Source: a virus (lineage: Duplodnaviria; Caudoviricetes). Taken from it: DNA of 64,000 nucleotides. Shown here piece after piece: positions 4,584 to 34,432 of the stretch. The position numbers and the translations under genes are program-made. The notes under the pieces are model-generated. The model saw nothing but the letters and a program-made list of their open reading frames with translations, was not told the DNA's origin and did no database searches. Within the stretch, counting starts at the first letter, position 1. Every line of letters begins with the position of its first letter. The stretch lies in the IMG/VR virus record IMGVR_UViG_3300032269_001670, positions 1 to 64,000 of that record, one strand, 5' to 3'.

Positions 4584-4659
4584 GGGGGTGTAGCTCAACG
4601 GTTAGAGCACTGAGCTTATATCTCAGCGGCTCCTGGTTCGAGTCCAGGCTCCCCCACCA
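4584..4659 (+). tRNA. tRNA-Ile (anticodon UAU)
   Basis: Cloverleaf: anticodon stem CTGAG/CTCAG, loop CT-TAT-AT (TAT at 4617-4619), T arm CCTGG-TTCGAGT-CCAGG, encoded CCA. Confidence 0.9.
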
Positions 4660-4796: not shown

Positions 4797-5192
4797 ATGA
4801 AGTCTGTCTCACGCTTTATGCACTACGTCGAAATCAACCAGGCCAACGGCTGCTGGGAGTGGACCGGCGCCTTTGACCGGAGTGGGTATGGTGCATTCAA
4901 GGATCAGGGCAAAAAAATAAATTCGCACCGGTGGAGCTACCGTCATTTTAAGGGCGAGCCACCGAAGGGGTTGGACATCGATCACCTCTGTCGCATCAGG
5001 AAGTGTGTCAGCCCAGAGCATCTAGAGGCAGTCACGCGAAAAGTCAACGTCCAGCGTGGTCTTGCTGCGCAGGAGCGAAAAACCCACTGCATTCATGGAC
5101 ACGAATATACGCCAGAGAATACGTACCGATATCCGAGTGGCGGACGTGAGTGTCGGACGTGCAAGTATGATGGTGGACGCATTCCGGAGTAG
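4797..5192 (+). CDS. HNH homing endonuclease-like protein
   Basis: CWEWTG...SHRWSY...IDHLCRIRKCVSPEHLEAVT..N, C-terminal THCIHGHEYTPENTY..CRTC; TGn-TATACT 6 nt before ATG (leaderless). Confidence 0.85.
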   Translation: MKSVSRFMHYVEINQANGCWEWTGAFDRSGYGAFKDQGKKINSHRWSYRHFKGEPPKGLDIDHLCRIRKCVSPEHLEAVTRKVNVQRGLAAQERKTHCIHGHEYTPENTYRYPSGGRECRTCKYDGGRIPE

Positions 5193-6641: not shown

Positions 6642-6699
6642 GCCCGACCCATCAGGCGCAACGCTGCCCGCTCATCGACATTGCCCGCCTTTGGCCCTT

Positions 6700-6961
6700 T
6701 GTTCTTGGGGTGAGGGGTAATGATGATGATGAATGATGAATGATGATGAATGATGAATGAGGGCTGAAAAAGAAGCTCCGCGCTCATTGACCGAGTCTCG
6801 ACAGAGCAGCCCGAAGGTTGACTCTTGCCGGACAACGAGTCGTAGTTCTTGGGGTCAGGGGTAAATGGTGGGGTAAGGGGTAAGGGGTAGATGATGAATG
6901 ATGAACGATGATGATGATGTCGATGAACGGGCAGCGATGGGGTAAGGGGTGGGGGCAGGGG
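6700..6961 (+). repeat. double spacer with G-tracts and TGA microsatellites
   Basis: (TGA/TGAA)n at 6721-6759 and 6891-6927; five GGGG at 6851-6887; four G-tracts at 6939-6961. Confidence 0.9.
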
Positions 6962-6991
6962 TGAAGGCCTTCACGATGACCAGACACAACC

Positions 6992-7032
6992 CAACAAGAA
7001 ACCCGCCCCCCGAAGGGAGCGGGTTCCTGTTG
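6992..7032 (-). terminator. intrinsic terminator (cassette C)
   Basis: Near copy of the 6040-6073 terminator. Confidence 0.85.
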
Positions 7033-7050
7033 CCCGAGGCTCGACGAAGG

Positions 7051-7545
7051 CTAGCCCGTGATGATGGCACCCTTCCTGCGGTTCTCAATGCCCAACGCCC
7101 ACGCCAGATCGCCGTAGCGAGTCCGAGCGTCAGCGAGCATCTGAAGATCCTCTGGGCGCTGCTCCCAGAGCGCAACGATGGTGCGGCGTGCCGACTCGGT
7201 GAGGTCTCCGAACTCCTCTTCGTCGTAGCCCGTCGAGTAGTGGGCAGCGTCATCTACCAACTCGCGGAACTCTGCTGGATTCATCACCAAAACCACCCAA
7301 CCCTCGTTGGTGCCGTTCGTTGACCGAATCTCGACGGAGACGAAGTCAAGGTCGCGGCTCGTGTGGTCGTCCCAGAAGCGACCCGAAACCACGAGAGCCT
7401 TCGCAGCCTTGCCAAGCGTGCGGATAGCAGCATTCGCAGCGGCGTGCTCCTCGTCAGTGATGGAGAGCAGGACGGAGCGGACGATTGCCCGCACCTCGAC
7501 GAGACGCTTCTCGTTGCTCTCACTGCTGAACGGATTTCCGTCCAT
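7051..7545 (-). CDS. hypothetical protein
   Basis: 164 aa; RBS GAAAGGGG; own promoter and terminator. Confidence 0.75.
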   Translation of the reverse strand: MDGNPFSSESNEKRLVEVRAIVRSVLLSITDEEHAAANAAIRTLGKAAKALVVSGRFWDDHTSRDLDFVSVEIRSTNGTNEGWVVLVMNPAEFRELVDDAAHYSTGYDEEEFGDLTESARRTIVALWEQRPEDLQMLADARTRYGDLAWALGIENRRKGAIITG

Positions 7546-7596
7546 TGTGTACCCCTTTCGTCAGGGCGGGTCTGTGCCGACAACCCCAACACCGAA

Positions 7597-7625
7597 AGAC
7601 TACATCGACAGACGGGCAGCGTCAA
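7597..7625 (-). promoter_or_regulatory. sigma70-type promoter
   Basis: TTGACG-N17-TAGTCT. Confidence 0.75.
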
Positions 7626-7667
7626 ACCCGACGCACCAGACGCAACGACCGAACCACCTATGAAGTC

Positions 7668-7915
7668 GTAGTCCTTGGGGATAGGGGTACGCCCGAAGTA
7701 ATGGCCTGATGATGATGACCTGATGATGATGACCTGATGAATGAGAACTGATGAATGATGACCGCTACCGGTGCTGAGATTCTCAAAGCTACACAAGAAA
7801 CGACCCCGTAGGAACGACGGAGAGGCACGGAAACGAGTAGGCCTATACCAGAACACCTAGAAGTTTTGGGGTAAGGGGTACGGGGTAAGGCCTAAGGGGT
7901 GAGGGGTAATGAGTG
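7668..7915 (+). repeat. double spacer with G-tracts and TGA repeats
   Basis: (TGATGATGACC)x2 and TGAA repeats at 7706-7760; five GGGG at 7868-7906. Confidence 0.9.
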
Positions 7916-7921
7916 AGGCCA

Positions 7922-7960
7922 TAAAGAAACCACCCCCACCCCGAAGGGTGAGGGTGGCCT
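7922..7960 (-). terminator. intrinsic terminator (cassette D)
   Basis: CCACCC..CACCCGAAGGGTG..GGGTGG with TTTCTTT tail on minus strand. Confidence 0.8.
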
Positions 7961-7983
7961 CAGTTGCCCCCAGCCGGAGAGGA

Positions 7984-8340
7984 CTACCTCTCAAAGTGTG
8001 TCGGCCAGACCTTTCGTGGCTCCTCTACGGCTACGACGAAGGCCAACGGCTTCCCGTCCAACTCAACCCACGAGCCGTTCAGGCCAGCAACACCGGCTTC
8101 GGTCATCACCTCAACAGCCCAAGCAGGAGCGTCCTCGGAAGAGTCGGACTCAGGGCCGAACTCACGAACCGAGTCAATCTCAAGCACCGCGCCGATTGCC
8201 TGAATCATTCCGCGCACGGTGGGCATCACATCACCAAAGGTGTCGGCCTCGGTTTCGTCATACGACCACCCGCTCGCCAGATTGACCCGCTGACCGCTAC
8301 CGGTGTCGGGCTTTGGTACGAAGACCAAGAAACGCCACAT
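7984..8340 (-). CDS. hypothetical acidic protein
   Basis: 118 aa; RBS GAAAGGGG; own promoter and terminator. Confidence 0.75.
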   Translation of the reverse strand: MWRFLVFVPKPDTGSGQRVNLASGWSYDETEADTFGDVMPTVRGMIQAIGAVLEIDSVREFGPESDSSEDAPAWAVEVMTEAGVAGLNGSWVELDGKPLAFVVAVEEPRKVWPTHFER

Positions 8341-8390
8341 AGCGTTCCCCTTTCTGTGCTACTCGGCCGAGCATAGCGTCCGAGGAGTTG

Positions 8391-8419
8391 AGTGTAGCCG
8401 GTGGTGGGCAACAGCGCAA
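8391..8419 (-). promoter_or_regulatory. sigma70-type promoter
   Basis: TTGCGC-N17-TACACT. Confidence 0.75.
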
Positions 8420-8460
8420 GCGAACGCTGACCGAGTCCAGGAATCTATTCTTTAGGTTGT

Positions 8461-8662
8461 TAGTTCTTGGGGCTAGGGGTAATGGGGTATGGGGTAATGA
8501 ATGATGAATGATGACTGATGATGCTGGACTAATGAATGATGACCGCGACCGGCCACAACCAAGAGCGCGCAGCTCGACGCGAACCATTGACCCTGAGCCG
8601 GTATTGGGGCAACGGGGTATGGGGTCAGGGGTCGGTGGGGGTCAGGGGTGAATGATGAATGA
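8461..8662 (+). repeat. double spacer with G-tracts and TGA repeats
   Basis: TAGTTCTTGGGG; four GGGG at 8469-8494; six G-tracts at 8606-8648. Confidence 0.9.
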
Positions 8663-8668
8663 ACGGAT

Positions 8669-8706
8669 AAAGAAGAAGCCCCACCCCCGAAGGGGCAGGG
8701 CTTCAT
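8669..8706 (-). terminator. intrinsic terminator (cassette E)
   Basis: GAAGCCC..CCCCGAAGGGG..GGGCTTC; UUCG loop. Confidence 0.85.
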
Positions 8707-8728
8707 TGACCGCTACCGGCCGCGTCGT

Positions 8729-9040
8729 TCAGTTGTCGAGGTCATCACCGAACTGGTAGCCGCACGGCTCGCAGTAGTCGCCCGACCAGCCAGCCATCGC
8801 GTCGCACTTGGGGCAAACGCCCGAGGTGCTCATCTCGGTACAATCGACCCAGGCTGAACGCTCGTCATCGAGCAGGAACTCCCGCGCATCGTCGGCGGTG
8901 TCGGCGTTGTACGCCGCCAACTCCGAAGCCAGCGCAATCAGGGCTGCCGTTGCCTCTGACCGGCCAGCGTGCCACGAGCGGTGCGTCTCGTTCTCCCAGA
9001 CCACCTCGACCAGCCAGAGCGTCTTCTCCGTGTCCGTCAT
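8729..9040 (-). CDS. hypothetical protein with C-terminal zinc ribbon
   Basis: 103 aa from ATG at 9040; CPKC-x9-CEPC. Confidence 0.75.
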   Translation of the reverse strand: MTDTEKTLWLVEVVWENETHRSWHAGRSEATAALIALASELAAYNADTADDAREFLLDDERSAWVDCTEMSTSGVCPKCDAMAGWSGDYCEPCGYQFGDDLDN

Positions 9041-9083
9041 TTCTGTTCTCCTCTCTGTACTACCGGCAACTGCCGGCACCCGA

Positions 9084-9113
9084 AGTATACGCGGCCGGTC
9101 GCGGTCAGCGCAA
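9084..9113 (-). promoter_or_regulatory. sigma70-type promoter
   Basis: TTGCGC-N18-TATACT. Confidence 0.75.
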
Positions 9114-9124
9114 GTCCGAACCAT

Positions 9125-9360
9125 AGAGGAGAGAGAAGGGAGAGAGAGGAGAGAGAGTAGAGAGAAGTAGTTCTTGGGGTGTGGGGTATGGGGTAATGAT
9201 GAATGAATGATGAATGAGTGAATGATGAACTGGTGAATGATGAATGACGCTGACCGAATCCCGGTGAGCGTCGAGCTACGACCGAATGGAACGACGGACG
9301 GAGTGGCCTAGTTCTTGGGGTCTGTGGTGTGGGGTCTGGGGTCTGGGGTCTGGGGTGAAT
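9125..9360 (+). repeat. spacer: (GA)n tract, TAGTTCTTGGGG twice, TGAA repeats, (TCTGGGG)n
   Basis: GA-rich 9125-9166; TGAA/TGA 9196-9247; five GGGG at 9317-9355. Confidence 0.9.
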
Positions 9361-9380
9361 AATAGCCTGATGAATAGCAC

Positions 9381-9422
9381 CAACAAAAAGACCCCACCCC
9401 CGAAGGGGTGAGGCCTTTGTTG
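9381..9422 (-). terminator. intrinsic terminator (cassette F)
   Basis: CACCCCCGAAGGGGTG core with U-tract on minus strand. Confidence 0.8.
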
Positions 9423-24335: not shown

Positions 24336-24737
24336 ATGACGAAGAAGAAGGTGATTACCGCCGACGACGTGCGAGAGATGAAGGCCATGCTTGACATGGT
24401 GAACTTGTCGTCTCTTGATAAACCATACGGGGAAGATAACGAAGCAACGCTAGGAGATCTAGTCGAGTCCCCGGGGCCATCCCCAGAGGAGCTTAGTCTC
24501 ACGTCTGATATGGTGCGCCTCATTCACGAGATGCTTGAAAGCCTTCCCGACCGGGATCGAGACATCCTTTGTATGCGCTACGGGATCGGCCTGAATCGCC
24601 CAATGACGATGGAGGAGGTAGGCCAAAAGTACAACCTGAGCCGTGAGCGCGTCCGCCAGATTGAAAATGCCGCGCTGACAACGCTCCGGCACCCGAGCAG
24701 GATGCGAAAAATGCGTGCATATTCGGTGGCAGGATGA
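24336..24737 (+). CDS. sigma70 region 3.2/region 4-only protein
   Basis: SLDKPYGEDNEATLGDLV...LPDRDRDILCMRYG...TMEEVGQKYNLSRERVRQIENAALTTLRHPSR; region 2 absent. Confidence 0.9.
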   Translation: MTKKKVITADDVREMKAMLDMVNLSSLDKPYGEDNEATLGDLVESPGPSPEELSLTSDMVRLIHEMLESLPDRDRDILCMRYGIGLNRPMTMEEVGQKYNLSRERVRQIENAALTTLRHPSRMRKMRAYSVAG

Positions 24738-31229: not shown

Positions 31230-31245
31230 TCTGGTATAGTCTAAC

Positions 31246-31317
31246 GGGGCCGCGTATACGCCAAAGGTCATCATGCCTGAGGGTAACGGCGGGTGAAACT
31301 CCCGCCCGGCTCCACCA
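31246..31317 (+). ncRNA. tRNA-like RNA with alanine identity (G3:U70), resembling a tmRNA tRNA-like domain
   Basis: GGGGCCG/CGGCTCC-A-CCA acceptor stem; GGCGGG-TGAAACT-CCCGCC T-like arm; TGG-TATAGT 5 nt upstream. Confidence 0.7.
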
Positions 31318-31327
31318 AAGGAGAATT

Positions 31328-31549
31328 ATGCCAACATACGACTATAAGTGCGAAAAGTGCGACATCACCCGGGAGACTGTTCGCAAGATGAGCGACGACT
31401 CTAAGGAGCTCTGCTTGGTATGCAATGGCGAGATGCGCGTTGTGTTTAACGCCCCAAAGATTACTTACAGAGGATCAGGTTGGGCATTCCAAGAAAAGAT
31501 TCCCCAGGAAACGCACTTGGTTATTGGATCTGACTCAAAGAAGTCCTGA
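31328..31549 (+). CDS. FmdB-family zinc-ribbon protein
   Basis: MPTYDYKCEKC...CLVC...RVVFNAPKITYRGSGW. Confidence 0.85.
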   Translation: MPTYDYKCEKCDITRETVRKMSDDSKELCLVCNGEMRVVFNAPKITYRGSGWAFQEKIPQETHLVIGSDSKKS

Positions 31550-31880
31550 GCTGACGGGACATATCCCGAATTGCTTTTCCCGGAGTTTCGCCGCGTCCAA
31601 CAATTGACGCAACATCTGGGAGTAAGTCGAGCGGCATAATTTCAGCAACCCAATGTGGTTCCTTGTCGTTGCTGTAATTCCACCAAAAAATCTGCATTGA
31701 CGGAAGCTCAACCCTCTTGCCAACCGATTGCTCAAAATCTCGCCATGCGCATTGCATGCAATCGTCGGGATCAACCGGAAGGCCATAAGACTTCAATCCG
31801 TCTGGTGTTTGGATGAGTGCCGATAAGTGGAGACACTCTGTCTTTTCGCTTACCAGTTTTAGCTCTTTTGAATCCATCAA
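31521..31880 (-). CDS. hypothetical protein with possible HicB-like C-terminus
   Basis: 119 aa; WVAEI...GRGETPGKAI. Confidence 0.55.
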   Translation of the reverse strand: MMDSKELKLVSEKTECLHLSALIQTPDGLKSYGLPVDPDDCMQCAWRDFEQSVGKRVELPSMQIFWWNYSNDKEPHWVAEIMPLDLLPDVASIVGRGETPGKAIRDMSRQLRTSLSQIQ

Positions 31881-33208: not shown

Positions 33209-34005
33209 TGGCAGAAAAAAAATCTCCTAAAGTTTTTCTTGTCACGCCAACACTTGATGGAAAAGTGACTGCGGAATACGCGCTGGCAGCAACGCAGCTG
33301 CAGTCTGTGTTGTATTCTCACGGCATTAACTTTCAGCTGCATCTTAACATTGGAAATTCATTGCTCGCTTCGGCAAGAAACAAACTTGCTGACGATTTTT
33401 TGTCCAGCAATGCAGACTATCTTCTGATGGTTGACTCAGACATTGCATACCGAGCTCAAGATGTAGTTGCAGCGTTGCCACACCTCGACGACGCTATTGT
33501 TGCCTTCCCTTGTTCAAAAAAGTTTACAAACTGGGATCGAGTTGCAAAAACTGTGCGCAACAACCCAGACTTTCCTGCGCAGGCAATTTCGGCAATTATG
33601 GGTGATGCAAATTTTCACTTGGGGGAAAGCGATTACCTTCGACCAAACGAGCACGGTTTAGCAAAGGTAAAGTGGATTGGTACGGGCATCATGATGACGT
33701 CGCGCAAAGCTCTGGAAAAGATTATTGCTGCCGAACCAGAGAATAAAACAATGGCCCACAACAAAGTGATTTATGAATTTTTTAGATACGACATGGAGTG
33801 GGAGGAAAAAGACGGCGTGAAGTACAAGGGGTATTCCGGAGAGGATGTTTCGTTCTGCGTGATGGCCAGAAATGCCGGGGTAGAGGTCTACGCCAAGCTC
33901 GATGCGCTTACAACGCACTCAGGATTCATGACGTATCGATTTGACGCAACAGCAGTGGCTAAAATCAAAAAGATTCCCGATGACATCAAGAGGCTAGGGA
34001 CGTAA
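33208..34005 (+). CDS. GT-A fold glycosyltransferase-like protein, paralog of 32187-33002
   Basis: ARNKLADDF, LMVDSDI, GTGIMMT, GEDVSFC. Confidence 0.75.
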   Translation: MAEKKSPKVFLVTPTLDGKVTAEYALAATQLQSVLYSHGINFQLHLNIGNSLLASARNKLADDFLSSNADYLLMVDSDIAYRAQDVVAALPHLDDAIVAFPCSKKFTNWDRVAKTVRNNPDFPAQAISAIMGDANFHLGESDYLRPNEHGLAKVKWIGTGIMMTSRKALEKIIAAEPENKTMAHNKVIYEFFRYDMEWEEKDGVKYKGYSGEDVSFCVMARNAGVEVYAKLDALTTHSGFMTYRFDATAVAKIKKIPDDIKRLGT

Positions 34006-34432
34006 GCCTAGATTCTTTTAACGGGTAGGCATACACCAACCAGTTTGATCTGATCTCTCGCCCCGGAAGATTCTCGTCCTCCACAACCGGCACGTAAGCC
34101 AAAACGTGTTCAAGCTTGGAAAATGACCGCAAAGTGCTGTGGGCGGTCTCTTTCGTGCAAGACACTACTTCATCAGGCTTGGGAATAAATCCAAGCTCAA
34201 TTAGGCCACGAAGCGTGTGAGACGCCGGGTCGCCAAAGTCAAGGACAACCACGTATGGCTCAGGAAGGATGACAGTTGTGAACTCTTCTTCAGCCCGGAT
34301 GCCCAGGTTGTGCAGGATAAACGAGACGCGCTGCTTGCTGATACCGAACATGCGACCGATTTCGTTTGCCGTGTAGCCATCGAGAAACAGCTCGCCGATT
34401 TCTTGGTTCCTTTGATGTTTGACATTAGGCAC
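33986..34432 (-). CDS. HTH (sigma region 4-like) protein
   Basis: GYTANEIGRMFGISKQRVSFIL; RBS AGAGGAG. Confidence 0.7.
   Translation of the reverse strand: MPNVKHQRNQEIGELFLDGYTANEIGRMFGISKQRVSFILHNLGIRAEEEFTTVILPEPYVVVLDFGDPASHTLRGLIELGFIPKPDEVVSCTKETAHSTLRSFSKLEHVLAYVPVVEDENLPGREIRSNWLVYAYPLKESRLTSLAS

Follow-up and report, generated by a model that had tools for sequence, protein, structure and literature searches.

The locus and the RNA it carries

The DNA analyzed here, called the window throughout, is a stretch of 64,000 nucleotides (nt), positions 1 to 64,000 of the IMG/VR virus record IMGVR_UViG_3300032269_001670. The source genome is a complete virus record of 85,707 base pairs (bp) with direct terminal repeats. 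Between a gene of 119 amino acids (aa) and a gene for a small zinc-ribbon protein, the window holds a 72-nt element on the + strand whose acceptor end is that of an alanine tRNA or a transfer-messenger RNA (tmRNA). An earlier note on this DNA, made from the letters alone, had described an acceptor stem with a G3:U wobble, a discriminator A followed by an encoded CCA, a T-like arm with a 6-bp stem, the promoter-like box TGGTATAGT, a Shine-Dalgarno (SD) sequence, and an FmdB gene. All of these are present and lie where they had been placed. In the list that follows, positions within the element are counted from its first base, G1; invariance refers to the distinct versions of the element found in relatives; and the bit score comes from R1, a covariance model built from the window family alone.

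31232-31240, + strand: extended -10 promoter-like box TGGTATAGT, ending 5 nt before G1
31246-31317, + strand: entire tRNA-like RNA gene, G1 to A72, 72 nt; 103 bits with model R1
31246-31252, + strand: 5' acceptor strand GGGGCCG, positions 1-7, with G3 in the G:U pair; all 7 pairs invariant
31253-31259, + strand: stem-less linker replacing the D arm, positions 8-14; G9, A11, A13, and C14 invariant
31260-31284, + strand: middle hairpin, positions 15-39; loop CAUCAU and GGUCAUCAUGC invariant
31285-31287, + strand: linker AAC before the T arm, positions 40-42; invariant
31288-31306, + strand: T-like arm GGCGGG/UGAAACU/CCCGCC, positions 43-61; 6-bp stem, 7-nt loop, no TTC
31307-31313, + strand: 3' acceptor strand CGGCUCC, positions 62-68, pairing with GGGGCCG; U66 is the equivalent of U70
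31314-31317, + strand: discriminator A (31314) and encoded CCA (31315-31317), positions 69-72; invariant in all variants
31318-31324, + strand: SD sequence AAGGAGA of the downstream gene, directly 3' of CCA
31328-31549, + strand: 73-aa Zn_ribbon_8 (FmdB-like) gene with its ATG at 31328; PF09723, E 1.6e-10; phrog_1076
31555-31578, + strand: terminator-like hairpin with a T-rich tail after the zinc-ribbon gene, closing the small transcription unit

The acceptor end of the element is the same as that of tRNA-Ala and tmRNA, with the equivalents of G1-C72, G2-C71, G3:U70, G4-C69, and C5-G68 followed by A73 and CCA. In the loop of the T-like arm, the equivalents of U54 and A58 are kept, position 55 is a G, and position 56 is variable. 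There is no D stem, and the lack of a canonical D arm noticed earlier was borne out. In the short middle hairpin, an internal loop separates the 3-bp base from a 4-bp stem that is capped by the CAUCAU loop. The fold is asymmetric between the strands, with z = -2.15 to -2.65 on the + strand and -0.37 for the reverse complement. This strand specificity arises because the invariant G:U pairs 3:66, 15:39, and 23:30 become C-A mismatches on the other strand.

We found no complement to the CAUCAU loop of the element next to it; complements occur only in generic ATGA repeats at 7.7-8.5 kb. These repeats belong to a region of the window, 6685-9410 (+), in which an intergenic module, TAGTTCTTGGGG-TNA-GGGGTAA plus runs of GGGGT, recurs about eight times; the module continues with (A)ATGATGA repeats and then a C-rich/GAAGGG hairpin. 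The complement of the loop region GGUCAUCAU, which is ATGATGACC, occurs four times there, at 7712, 7726, 7755, and 8536, and these sites read GGUCAUCAU on the minus strand, the same as the element loop. The recurrence of ATGATGACC is probably due only to the ATGA repeats.

Conservation, borders, and genome setting

We sought relatives through the upstream 119-aa gene, with structural DNA patterns in IMG/VR, and in one metagenome scan. Fourteen viral contigs and 8 metagenome contigs came out, seemingly all of freshwater origin. Protein look-ups added extra Logan/ENA contigs, and the total across the viral, metagenome, and Logan/ENA contigs is 10 distinct element versions. Two of the five matches of one structural pattern in IMG/VR were due to chance, and two wider patterns returned the same 14 contigs and nothing further. 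With model R1, the elements of the relatives score 90-104 bits, a range that includes the window's own score.

The earlier note had held that a lack of conservation would tell against its reading; the element is, in fact, conserved. Its mean pairwise identity is 92%. The same measure is 80% over the closing 150 nt of the upstream gene and 84% over the opening 150 nt of the downstream gene, and it falls to 68% in the 20 nt that precede G1. RNAalifold, run unguided, gave the same three helices. The T stem has double compensatory changes at two pairs, with pair 45:59 seen as C-G, A-U, and U-A, and pair 46:58 seen as G-C, A-U, and G:U. Pair 20:33 of the middle hairpin appears in three paired forms (A-U, G-C, and C-G) and is mismatched in three versions, and pairs 17:37 and 21:32 change only to G:U. 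The named structure exceeded all 500 column shuffles, in both percent paired and covariation score, as well as every slid control; with sequences that are few and related, we take this result as supportive rather than as proof. We conclude that 31246-31317 is a real, conserved, + strand-specific three-helix RNA.

The pattern of variation is uneven along the molecule. All 14 acceptor-stem columns are invariant, as are ACCA, GGUCAUCAUGC, and GGGUAAC, and 4 of the 12 T-stem columns vary. Since the acceptor columns are fixed while the T stem varies, the acceptor end must be constrained in sequence and not by pairing alone, which argues for a constraint of the kind that would be expected for identity elements. 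A further hint comes from linker position 12 and T-loop position 51, which may be the equivalent of the tRNA elbow pair 19:56. These two positions are U:A in four variants, A:U in two, G:C in one, and non-pairs in three, but with 10 variants this covariation is not statistically distinctive, and other column pairs reach similar mutual information. We therefore regard it as suggestive only of a tRNA-like elbow.

The borders of the element emerged from relatives that have it elsewhere or not at all. In contig L045 (1649-1720, - strand), a 72-nt element with the most divergent stems has different genes around it: its first base is the G of a TAG stop codon, and the SD sequence of a MazG-like gene comes 43 nt after it. 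This locus has no promoter box, no zinc-ribbon gene, and no SD sequence at the CCA, and the stem of its middle hairpin is fully paired. Contigs L109-L111 (L109:594-622), whose upstream gene has 82-83% identity to that of the window and thus falls within the element-bearing range, lack exactly G1-A72; they keep TGGTATAGT, six bases, and then AAAGGAGG and the zinc-ribbon gene. A decayed remnant of the element, with AGTAAACGC kept, is found in L108 (1176-1234). In the more distant L040 and L041 (75% upstream-gene identity), the zinc-ribbon gene overlaps the upstream stop (TGATG), and there is no promoter and no element; L033-L038 (67-70% identity) have neither the element nor the zinc-ribbon gene. 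The borders are therefore exact in two gene contexts and in a natural absence allele, and the element is a discrete module bordered by G1 and A72. The L045 context and the absence in L109-L111 also mean that selection acts on the RNA between G1 and A72 as a unit and not on a leader needed by the zinc-ribbon gene, which is a co-transcribed neighbor rather than a required partner.

Downstream of the L045 element, we noted a 115-aa reading frame for the MazG-like protein, a phrog_1574-like transferase gene, and a further open reading frame (ORF). The contig breaks off on the upstream side of that locus, which leaves the reading frame there ambiguous.

In the window, the five bases CTAAC separate TGGTATAGT from the element. 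The relatives conserve the TGnTATAGT box but not the 5-6 nt that separate it from G1, which vary freely; the start of transcription is therefore probably G1 or a base beside it, and the box itself is a putative promoter, judged by its sequence. The motif is not overrepresented in the genome. The predicted fold in the mRNA context has the element folded, the acceptor stem closed, and the SD sequence AAGGAGA unpaired. Two candidate functions for this region were rejected. One was a leader peptide running from AUG (28-30) to a UGA, whose stop is TGT in most relatives and whose SD-like AAGG is lost in L045; the other was a switch that sequesters the SD sequence, which the fold in the mRNA context does not predict. 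Elsewhere in the genome, there are matches to sigma-70 region 4 in the absence of the rest of a sigma factor, at 33989-34432 (-) and at about 24336-24737. The PF04545 match at 33989-34432 has E 1.4e-4, and the best among all ORFs has E 8.3e-11. If recognition of the -35 box is altered during infection, extended -10 promoters like that of the element could be favored.

The phage looks like a long-tailed siphophage. One of its ORFs, 3397 aa long, contains a tape-measure domain, and others encode a portal of the HK97 type and an S78 prohead protease. An N4-like identity, guessed at from the 3397-aa ORF, was ruled out by the tape-measure domain and the HK97-type portal and protease. No integrase, including tyrosine integrase, was found in the complete 85.7-kb genome, and cultured phages gave no blastn match to the 2.5-kb region around the element. 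The only tRNAs called, by ARAGORN and at Rfam gathering thresholds, are tRNA-Ile(TAT) at 4584 and tRNA-Asn at 5183. An ORF between these two genes, 4797-5189 (+), is HNH-like in sequence and is a candidate only; one HNH_3 endonuclease was detected among the ORFs of the genome.

Relation to tRNA and tmRNA

A phage-encoded RNA of related design has been described. Mycobacterium phage DS6A has a tmRNA that consists of the tRNA-like domain (TLD) only and lacks a coding sequence (CDS); it is listed in the tmRNA Website as tmID 11587 (PMC4131195; PMC11915505). CDS-less tmRNA forms of about 65 bp are also known from plastids (PMC11915505). According to the work of Mao et al. (2009), as far as it is cited in later papers, a TLD-only molecule like that of DS6A strongly inhibits tmRNA, perhaps by titration of SmpB (PMC4131195; PMC11915505).

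As a positive control, the DS6A RNA reached 34.7 bits (E 1.3e-12) with the Rfam tmRNA model when it was searched as the window element was. The window element behaved differently. ARAGORN, with default and with relaxed scores, called it neither a tRNA nor a tmRNA and reported no tag peptide. On the 351 nt around the element, the Rfam models for tRNA, tmRNA (RF00023), and permuted tmRNA gave no match at E<=10, and a permissive Rfam scan of the same 351 nt gave two chance matches only. The suspicion that this might turn out to be an ordinary tRNA can thus be set aside. A second tmRNA piece, which the earlier note had proposed to look for in the rest of the genome, did not appear: there is no tmRNA-family match anywhere in the 85.7 kb at E<=0.1.

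We then compared the element with what defines each class. A tRNA under RF00005 is a cloverleaf with D and anticodon arms that scores at least 29 bits and is called by ARAGORN, and the element falls below this bar. It shares with tRNA a 7-bp acceptor stem, the discriminator, CCA, and a T loop of the U54-A58 type, and its T-like arm departs from tRNA in the 6-bp stem and in loop positions 55/56, which are G/N and not psi/C. With tmRNA it shares the alanine identity set, G3:U70 and A73, invariant in the 10 variants. The mRNA-like domain, the resume codon and tag frame, and the pseudoknots of tmRNA are all missing from its 72 nt, and its 7-nt stem-less linker lacks the tmRNA D-loop consensus GG..UUCGAC. 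The architecture as a whole is that of a TLD-only molecule, with an acceptor stem, a stem-less D region, a short closed helix, a T arm, and no tag. PMC11915505 takes as its criterion that an RNA be nearer in sequence to tmRNAs than to tRNAs; this is not seen in the element, and its 3' half matches tmRNA and tRNA 3' ends equally well. The earlier note had proposed a tmRNA TLD without the mRNA-like domain; of this proposal, the architecture holds up and has a precedent in DS6A, but homology to tmRNA finds no support in the empty Rfam searches.

The 3' half and the unusual T loop can be followed in other genomes. A blastn search with the element matched only the T-arm/acceptor 3' ends of tmRNA-like sequences. 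One match is the acceptor piece of a two-piece tmRNA in Caulobacter phage CcrPW, called by ARAGORN and having the T loop UGCGAUU; other matches come from Pseudomonas phage records, in one case close to an integrase gene. In species-representative bacterial genomes, a pattern scan found 50 loci at which a T loop starting with U-G is followed by CGGCUCCACCA or, in a few, AGGCUCCACCA. Inspected by eye, these loci look to be 3' ends of tmRNAs from Caulobacterales and Erysipelotrichaceae, together with a tRNA-Lys from Opitutaceae and some genes for tRNA-Ala. The T loop of the L045 element, UGCAACU, is identical to bacterial U-G loops. Since such loops occur in bacterial tmRNA and tRNA, the odd T loop of the element is a natural variant. 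The 3' half of the window element with its sixth T-stem pair is present in none of the species-representative bacterial genomes scanned.

We also came across alanine-type genes in Opitutia/Lacunisphaera and in a metagenome-assembled genome of Pseudomonadota (L103:4402-4427, L106:5441-5466, and two sites in L096). Their acceptor is GGGGCCU/AGGCUCC, their short anticodon-like loop contains GGC, and their T loop is UGCGACU. Their D region looks noncanonical, and they may be unusual tRNA-Ala genes or tRNA look-alikes.

Possible function and comparison with known systems

That the element is an RNA gene with an alanine-type mimic end is, in our judgment, very probable. The fuller reading that we prefer, and hold to be somewhat better than an even call, is that of a stand-alone, anticodon-less, alanine-type tRNA-like RNA that would be charged by the host and serve as a non-decoding decoy, most likely against SmpB and trans-translation. 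The decoy function is one that we infer, and SmpB and trans-translation as its target is a tentative choice that we would place well short of even, because the D-loop motif is missing. Experimental precedent nevertheless exists for SmpB titration alone.

In the mechanism that we propose, the RNA would be transcribed from the TGnTATAGT promoter, with its start at G1 or G2; in the L045 lineage, it would instead be cut from a longer transcript by RNase P. The 3' end would be made by cleavage in the A-rich stretch after CCA and subsequent exonuclease trimming, as is usual when bacterial tRNA and tmRNA precursors encode their CCA (PMC3968760). Host AlaRS would then charge the RNA, since G3:U70 and A73 on an acceptor/T minihelix are sufficient. 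The charged RNA would titrate SmpB, and perhaps EF-Tu or AlaRS, and so dampen host trans-translation during infection; having no anticodon, it could not decode and would act as a decoy. We found no phage-encoded SmpB, AlaRS, CCA-adding enzyme, or RtcB, so that host factors would be used. No tRNA-dependent transferase or tRNA repair enzyme was seen among the 93 ORFs or in the neighborhood.

Several points weigh against this reading. Expression, RNA ends, and alanine charging are deduced from sequence features. The Rfam tRNA and tmRNA models and ARAGORN miss the element, whereas the DS6A RNA is recognized by the Rfam tmRNA model, and the missing D-loop consensus is one that contributes to SmpB binding in tmRNA. 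Since the acceptor stem is invariant, covariation gives no confirmation of its pairing. The family is narrow, with 10 variants from one phage lineage, and the element is lost in some relatives and is therefore dispensable. The 6-bp T stem produces an acceptor/T stack of 7 + 6 = 13 bp, and, by analogy with tRNA-Sec, such a stack may weaken use by EF-Tu or the ribosome; disfavored EF-Tu use may fit a sink better than a ribosome substrate. Finally, no terminator follows CCA, a free 3' end hinges on the proposed cleavage, and that cleavage would also cost the downstream mRNA its 5' end.

The structural evidence also fits an alanine-charged RNA that is not an SmpB sink. This could be a decoy or sponge that draws off host anti-phage factors directed at tRNA acceptor ends or at tRNA and tmRNA in general, or a dedicated alanine donor for a nonribosomal aminoacyl transfer. 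Without the D-loop motif or an Rfam tmRNA score, the element is a less obvious match for SmpB, the invariant CAUCAU loop suggests an additional specific partner, and phages do exploit t(m)RNA fragments against defense, as with AcrIIIA1 (PMC11662646). This proposal is pure inference, however: the phage has no tRNA-dependent transferase, repair enzyme, or other candidate partner that we could find, and the loop complement occurs only in the generic ATGA repeats. We judge it unlikely, while keeping it in view; if the partner is indeed not SmpB, the invariant hairpin points to an unknown factor. We give about as little credence to a cis-acting element of the 5' untranslated region of the zinc-ribbon mRNA, whose tRNA likeness would only recruit processing enzymes. 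It might be a 5' stabilizer, a translational operator (bound, for example, by the zinc-ribbon protein), a riboswitch-like switch between the first helix (P1) and the SD sequence, or an RNase P/E processing signal. The element does lie exactly between the likely transcription start and the SD sequence, its CUCC at positions 65-68 might form an alternative pairing with GGAG in the SD sequence, and, since the sole terminator-like hairpin comes after the gene, transcription has to run on into it. But the L045 element stands beside other genes with no SD sequence at its CCA, L109-L111 have gene, promoter, and SD sequence without the element, and in L040 and L041 the gene is translationally coupled and leaderless. 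The mRNA-context fold is predicted with a closed acceptor stem and a free SD sequence, and a plain stabilizer or processing signal would need no invariant G3:U70, A73, and CCA. The suggestion in the earlier note of a processing signal that releases the downstream mRNA is disfavored by L109-L111 and by the L045 context.

Two further explanations are very improbable. A nonfunctional relic, either a decayed tRNA-Ala or tmRNA fragment or the core of a phage attachment site (attP) derived from a host tRNA or tmRNA 3' end, would account for the loss or decay of the element in some relatives and for the resemblance of its 3' half to tmRNA 3' ends near an integrase gene in Pseudomonas phage records. 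It is largely refuted by the lack of a tyrosine integrase in a complete genome with terminal repeats, the presence of both acceptor strands, conservation above that of the neighbor genes, the compensatory changes, and the failure to find the 3' half in any species-representative bacterial genome. Just as hard to credit is a complete ultraminimal tmRNA. Such an RNA would be charged with alanine, enter a stalled ribosome, and take over the nascent chain on that alanine, whereupon the hairpin would unfold and translation would resume at GCY (30-32) and stop at UGA (33-35) or UAA (39-41); one to three residues would be added and the ribosome released without a degradation tag. The frame GCY-NNN-GGG-UAA (31275-31286, positions 30-41) is open in all 10 variants, with UGA as its second codon in the window. 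Position 32 is only C or U, which is synonymous for alanine; GGGUAA is invariant, unlike positions 33-35, which vary freely; and tags of two residues are known from some bacteria (PMC11915505). However, the same columns are explained by pair 21:32 (G-C or G:U) and the internal loop, the frame lies inside the hairpin and only 16 nt from the junction, and pseudoknots and an H2 helix are missing. There is also no upstream resume-codon context like that of E. coli, and chance would be expected to produce an open frame this short. The frame is probably a by-product of the stem. Were the idea true, it would mean tag-free rescue that protects phage proteins from host tagging, by the smallest complete tmRNA known.

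If the element is the decoy that we favor, mimics of this kind can drift beyond the reach of ARAGORN and Rfam while the alanine acceptor set stays the same letter for letter. Since the element was missed by both, current annotation probably undercounts such mimics. The presence, absence, and decay alleles at one locus, together with a second genomic context, amount to a natural experiment in which the L108-L111 alleles are useful as isogenic-like controls. The compact cassette, a putative promoter starting at G1 and a 72-nt RNA, offers an easy handle on phage interference with ribosome rescue.

Among known systems, canonical tRNA-Ala (RF00005) agrees with the element in five acceptor pairs, in A73 and CCA, and in having a T arm with U54 and A58 or their equivalents; in contrast to it, the window RNA has no D arm, no 7-nt anticodon loop, and no alanine anticodon. 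The synthetic minihelix-Ala and microhelix-Ala of Francklyn and Schimmel (1989) are reportedly substrates of AlaRS. Like the element, minihelix-Ala is an acceptor/T-arm helix with G3:U70 and A73-CCA on the stacked helix, sufficient for alanylation without an anticodon; unlike it, the element is a natural gene with an extra 35-nt insert (linker and hairpin), and its free CCA end is a deduced one. The AlaRS identity rules have been reviewed (PMC9976931).

Phages also have RNase P-processed RNAs with tRNA-like ends. Examples are the C4 antisense RNA of P1/P7 and the CI RNA of P4, which, like the element, are small phage RNAs in an operon leader with a tRNA-like acceptor/T mimic and a CCA that would permit RNase P recognition. 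They differ in pairing through antisense loops with targets in the same transcript, where our search next to the element turned up no complement to its CAUCAU loop, and in lacking the alanine identity set. RNase P substrates are reviewed in PMC11143913. The TLD of bacterial tmRNA (RF00023; permuted forms RF01849-51 and RF04321) resembles the element in the alanine acceptor set, coaxial stacking of acceptor and T arms, a reduced stem-less D loop, a junction helix in the place of the anticodon stem, and natural T loops that start with U-G. Compared with it, the window RNA has no mRNA-like domain, pseudoknots, or helix 2, lacks the D-loop consensus, and has one T-stem pair more, and the tmRNA covariance models are blind to it.

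To our knowledge, TLD-only mimics are the sole RNA-based route by which phages could switch off or redirect bacterial ribosome rescue, and we know of one phage TLD-only tmRNA mimic in the literature, that of DS6A, which has barely been studied. Model R1 finds this RNA (our locus L055) at JN698994 28478-28560, between gp33 and gp34, with 17.9 bits and E 0.0099, and so connects the two molecules. The DS6A RNA is unannotated in GenBank record JN698994; the phage also encodes an RtcB-like RNA ligase (gp76) and MazG (gp70). Both RNAs are phage encoded, intergenic, and about 70-85 nt long, and their acceptor stems, GGGGCCG/CGGCUCC with G3:U70 and A73, are identical. Each has a T arm but no D stem, carries a short closed helix where tmRNA has helix 2, and lacks a tag frame. 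The DS6A RNA differs in its tmRNA D-loop motif (AAUGGUGGUCGAC), canonical UUCGAUU T loop, 5-bp T stem, clear Rfam tmRNA score, and CUA end. The window RNA has instead a 7-nt linker, a UGNAACU loop, a 6-bp T stem, the invariant CAUCAU hairpin, no tmRNA score, and an encoded CCA. Because the plan is common to both but the tmRNA signature is missing, we file the element as working like a TLD-only tmRNA and do not claim membership in the tmRNA family. It is a new, strongly divergent version of a known, barely studied type of phage RNA and not a new principle.

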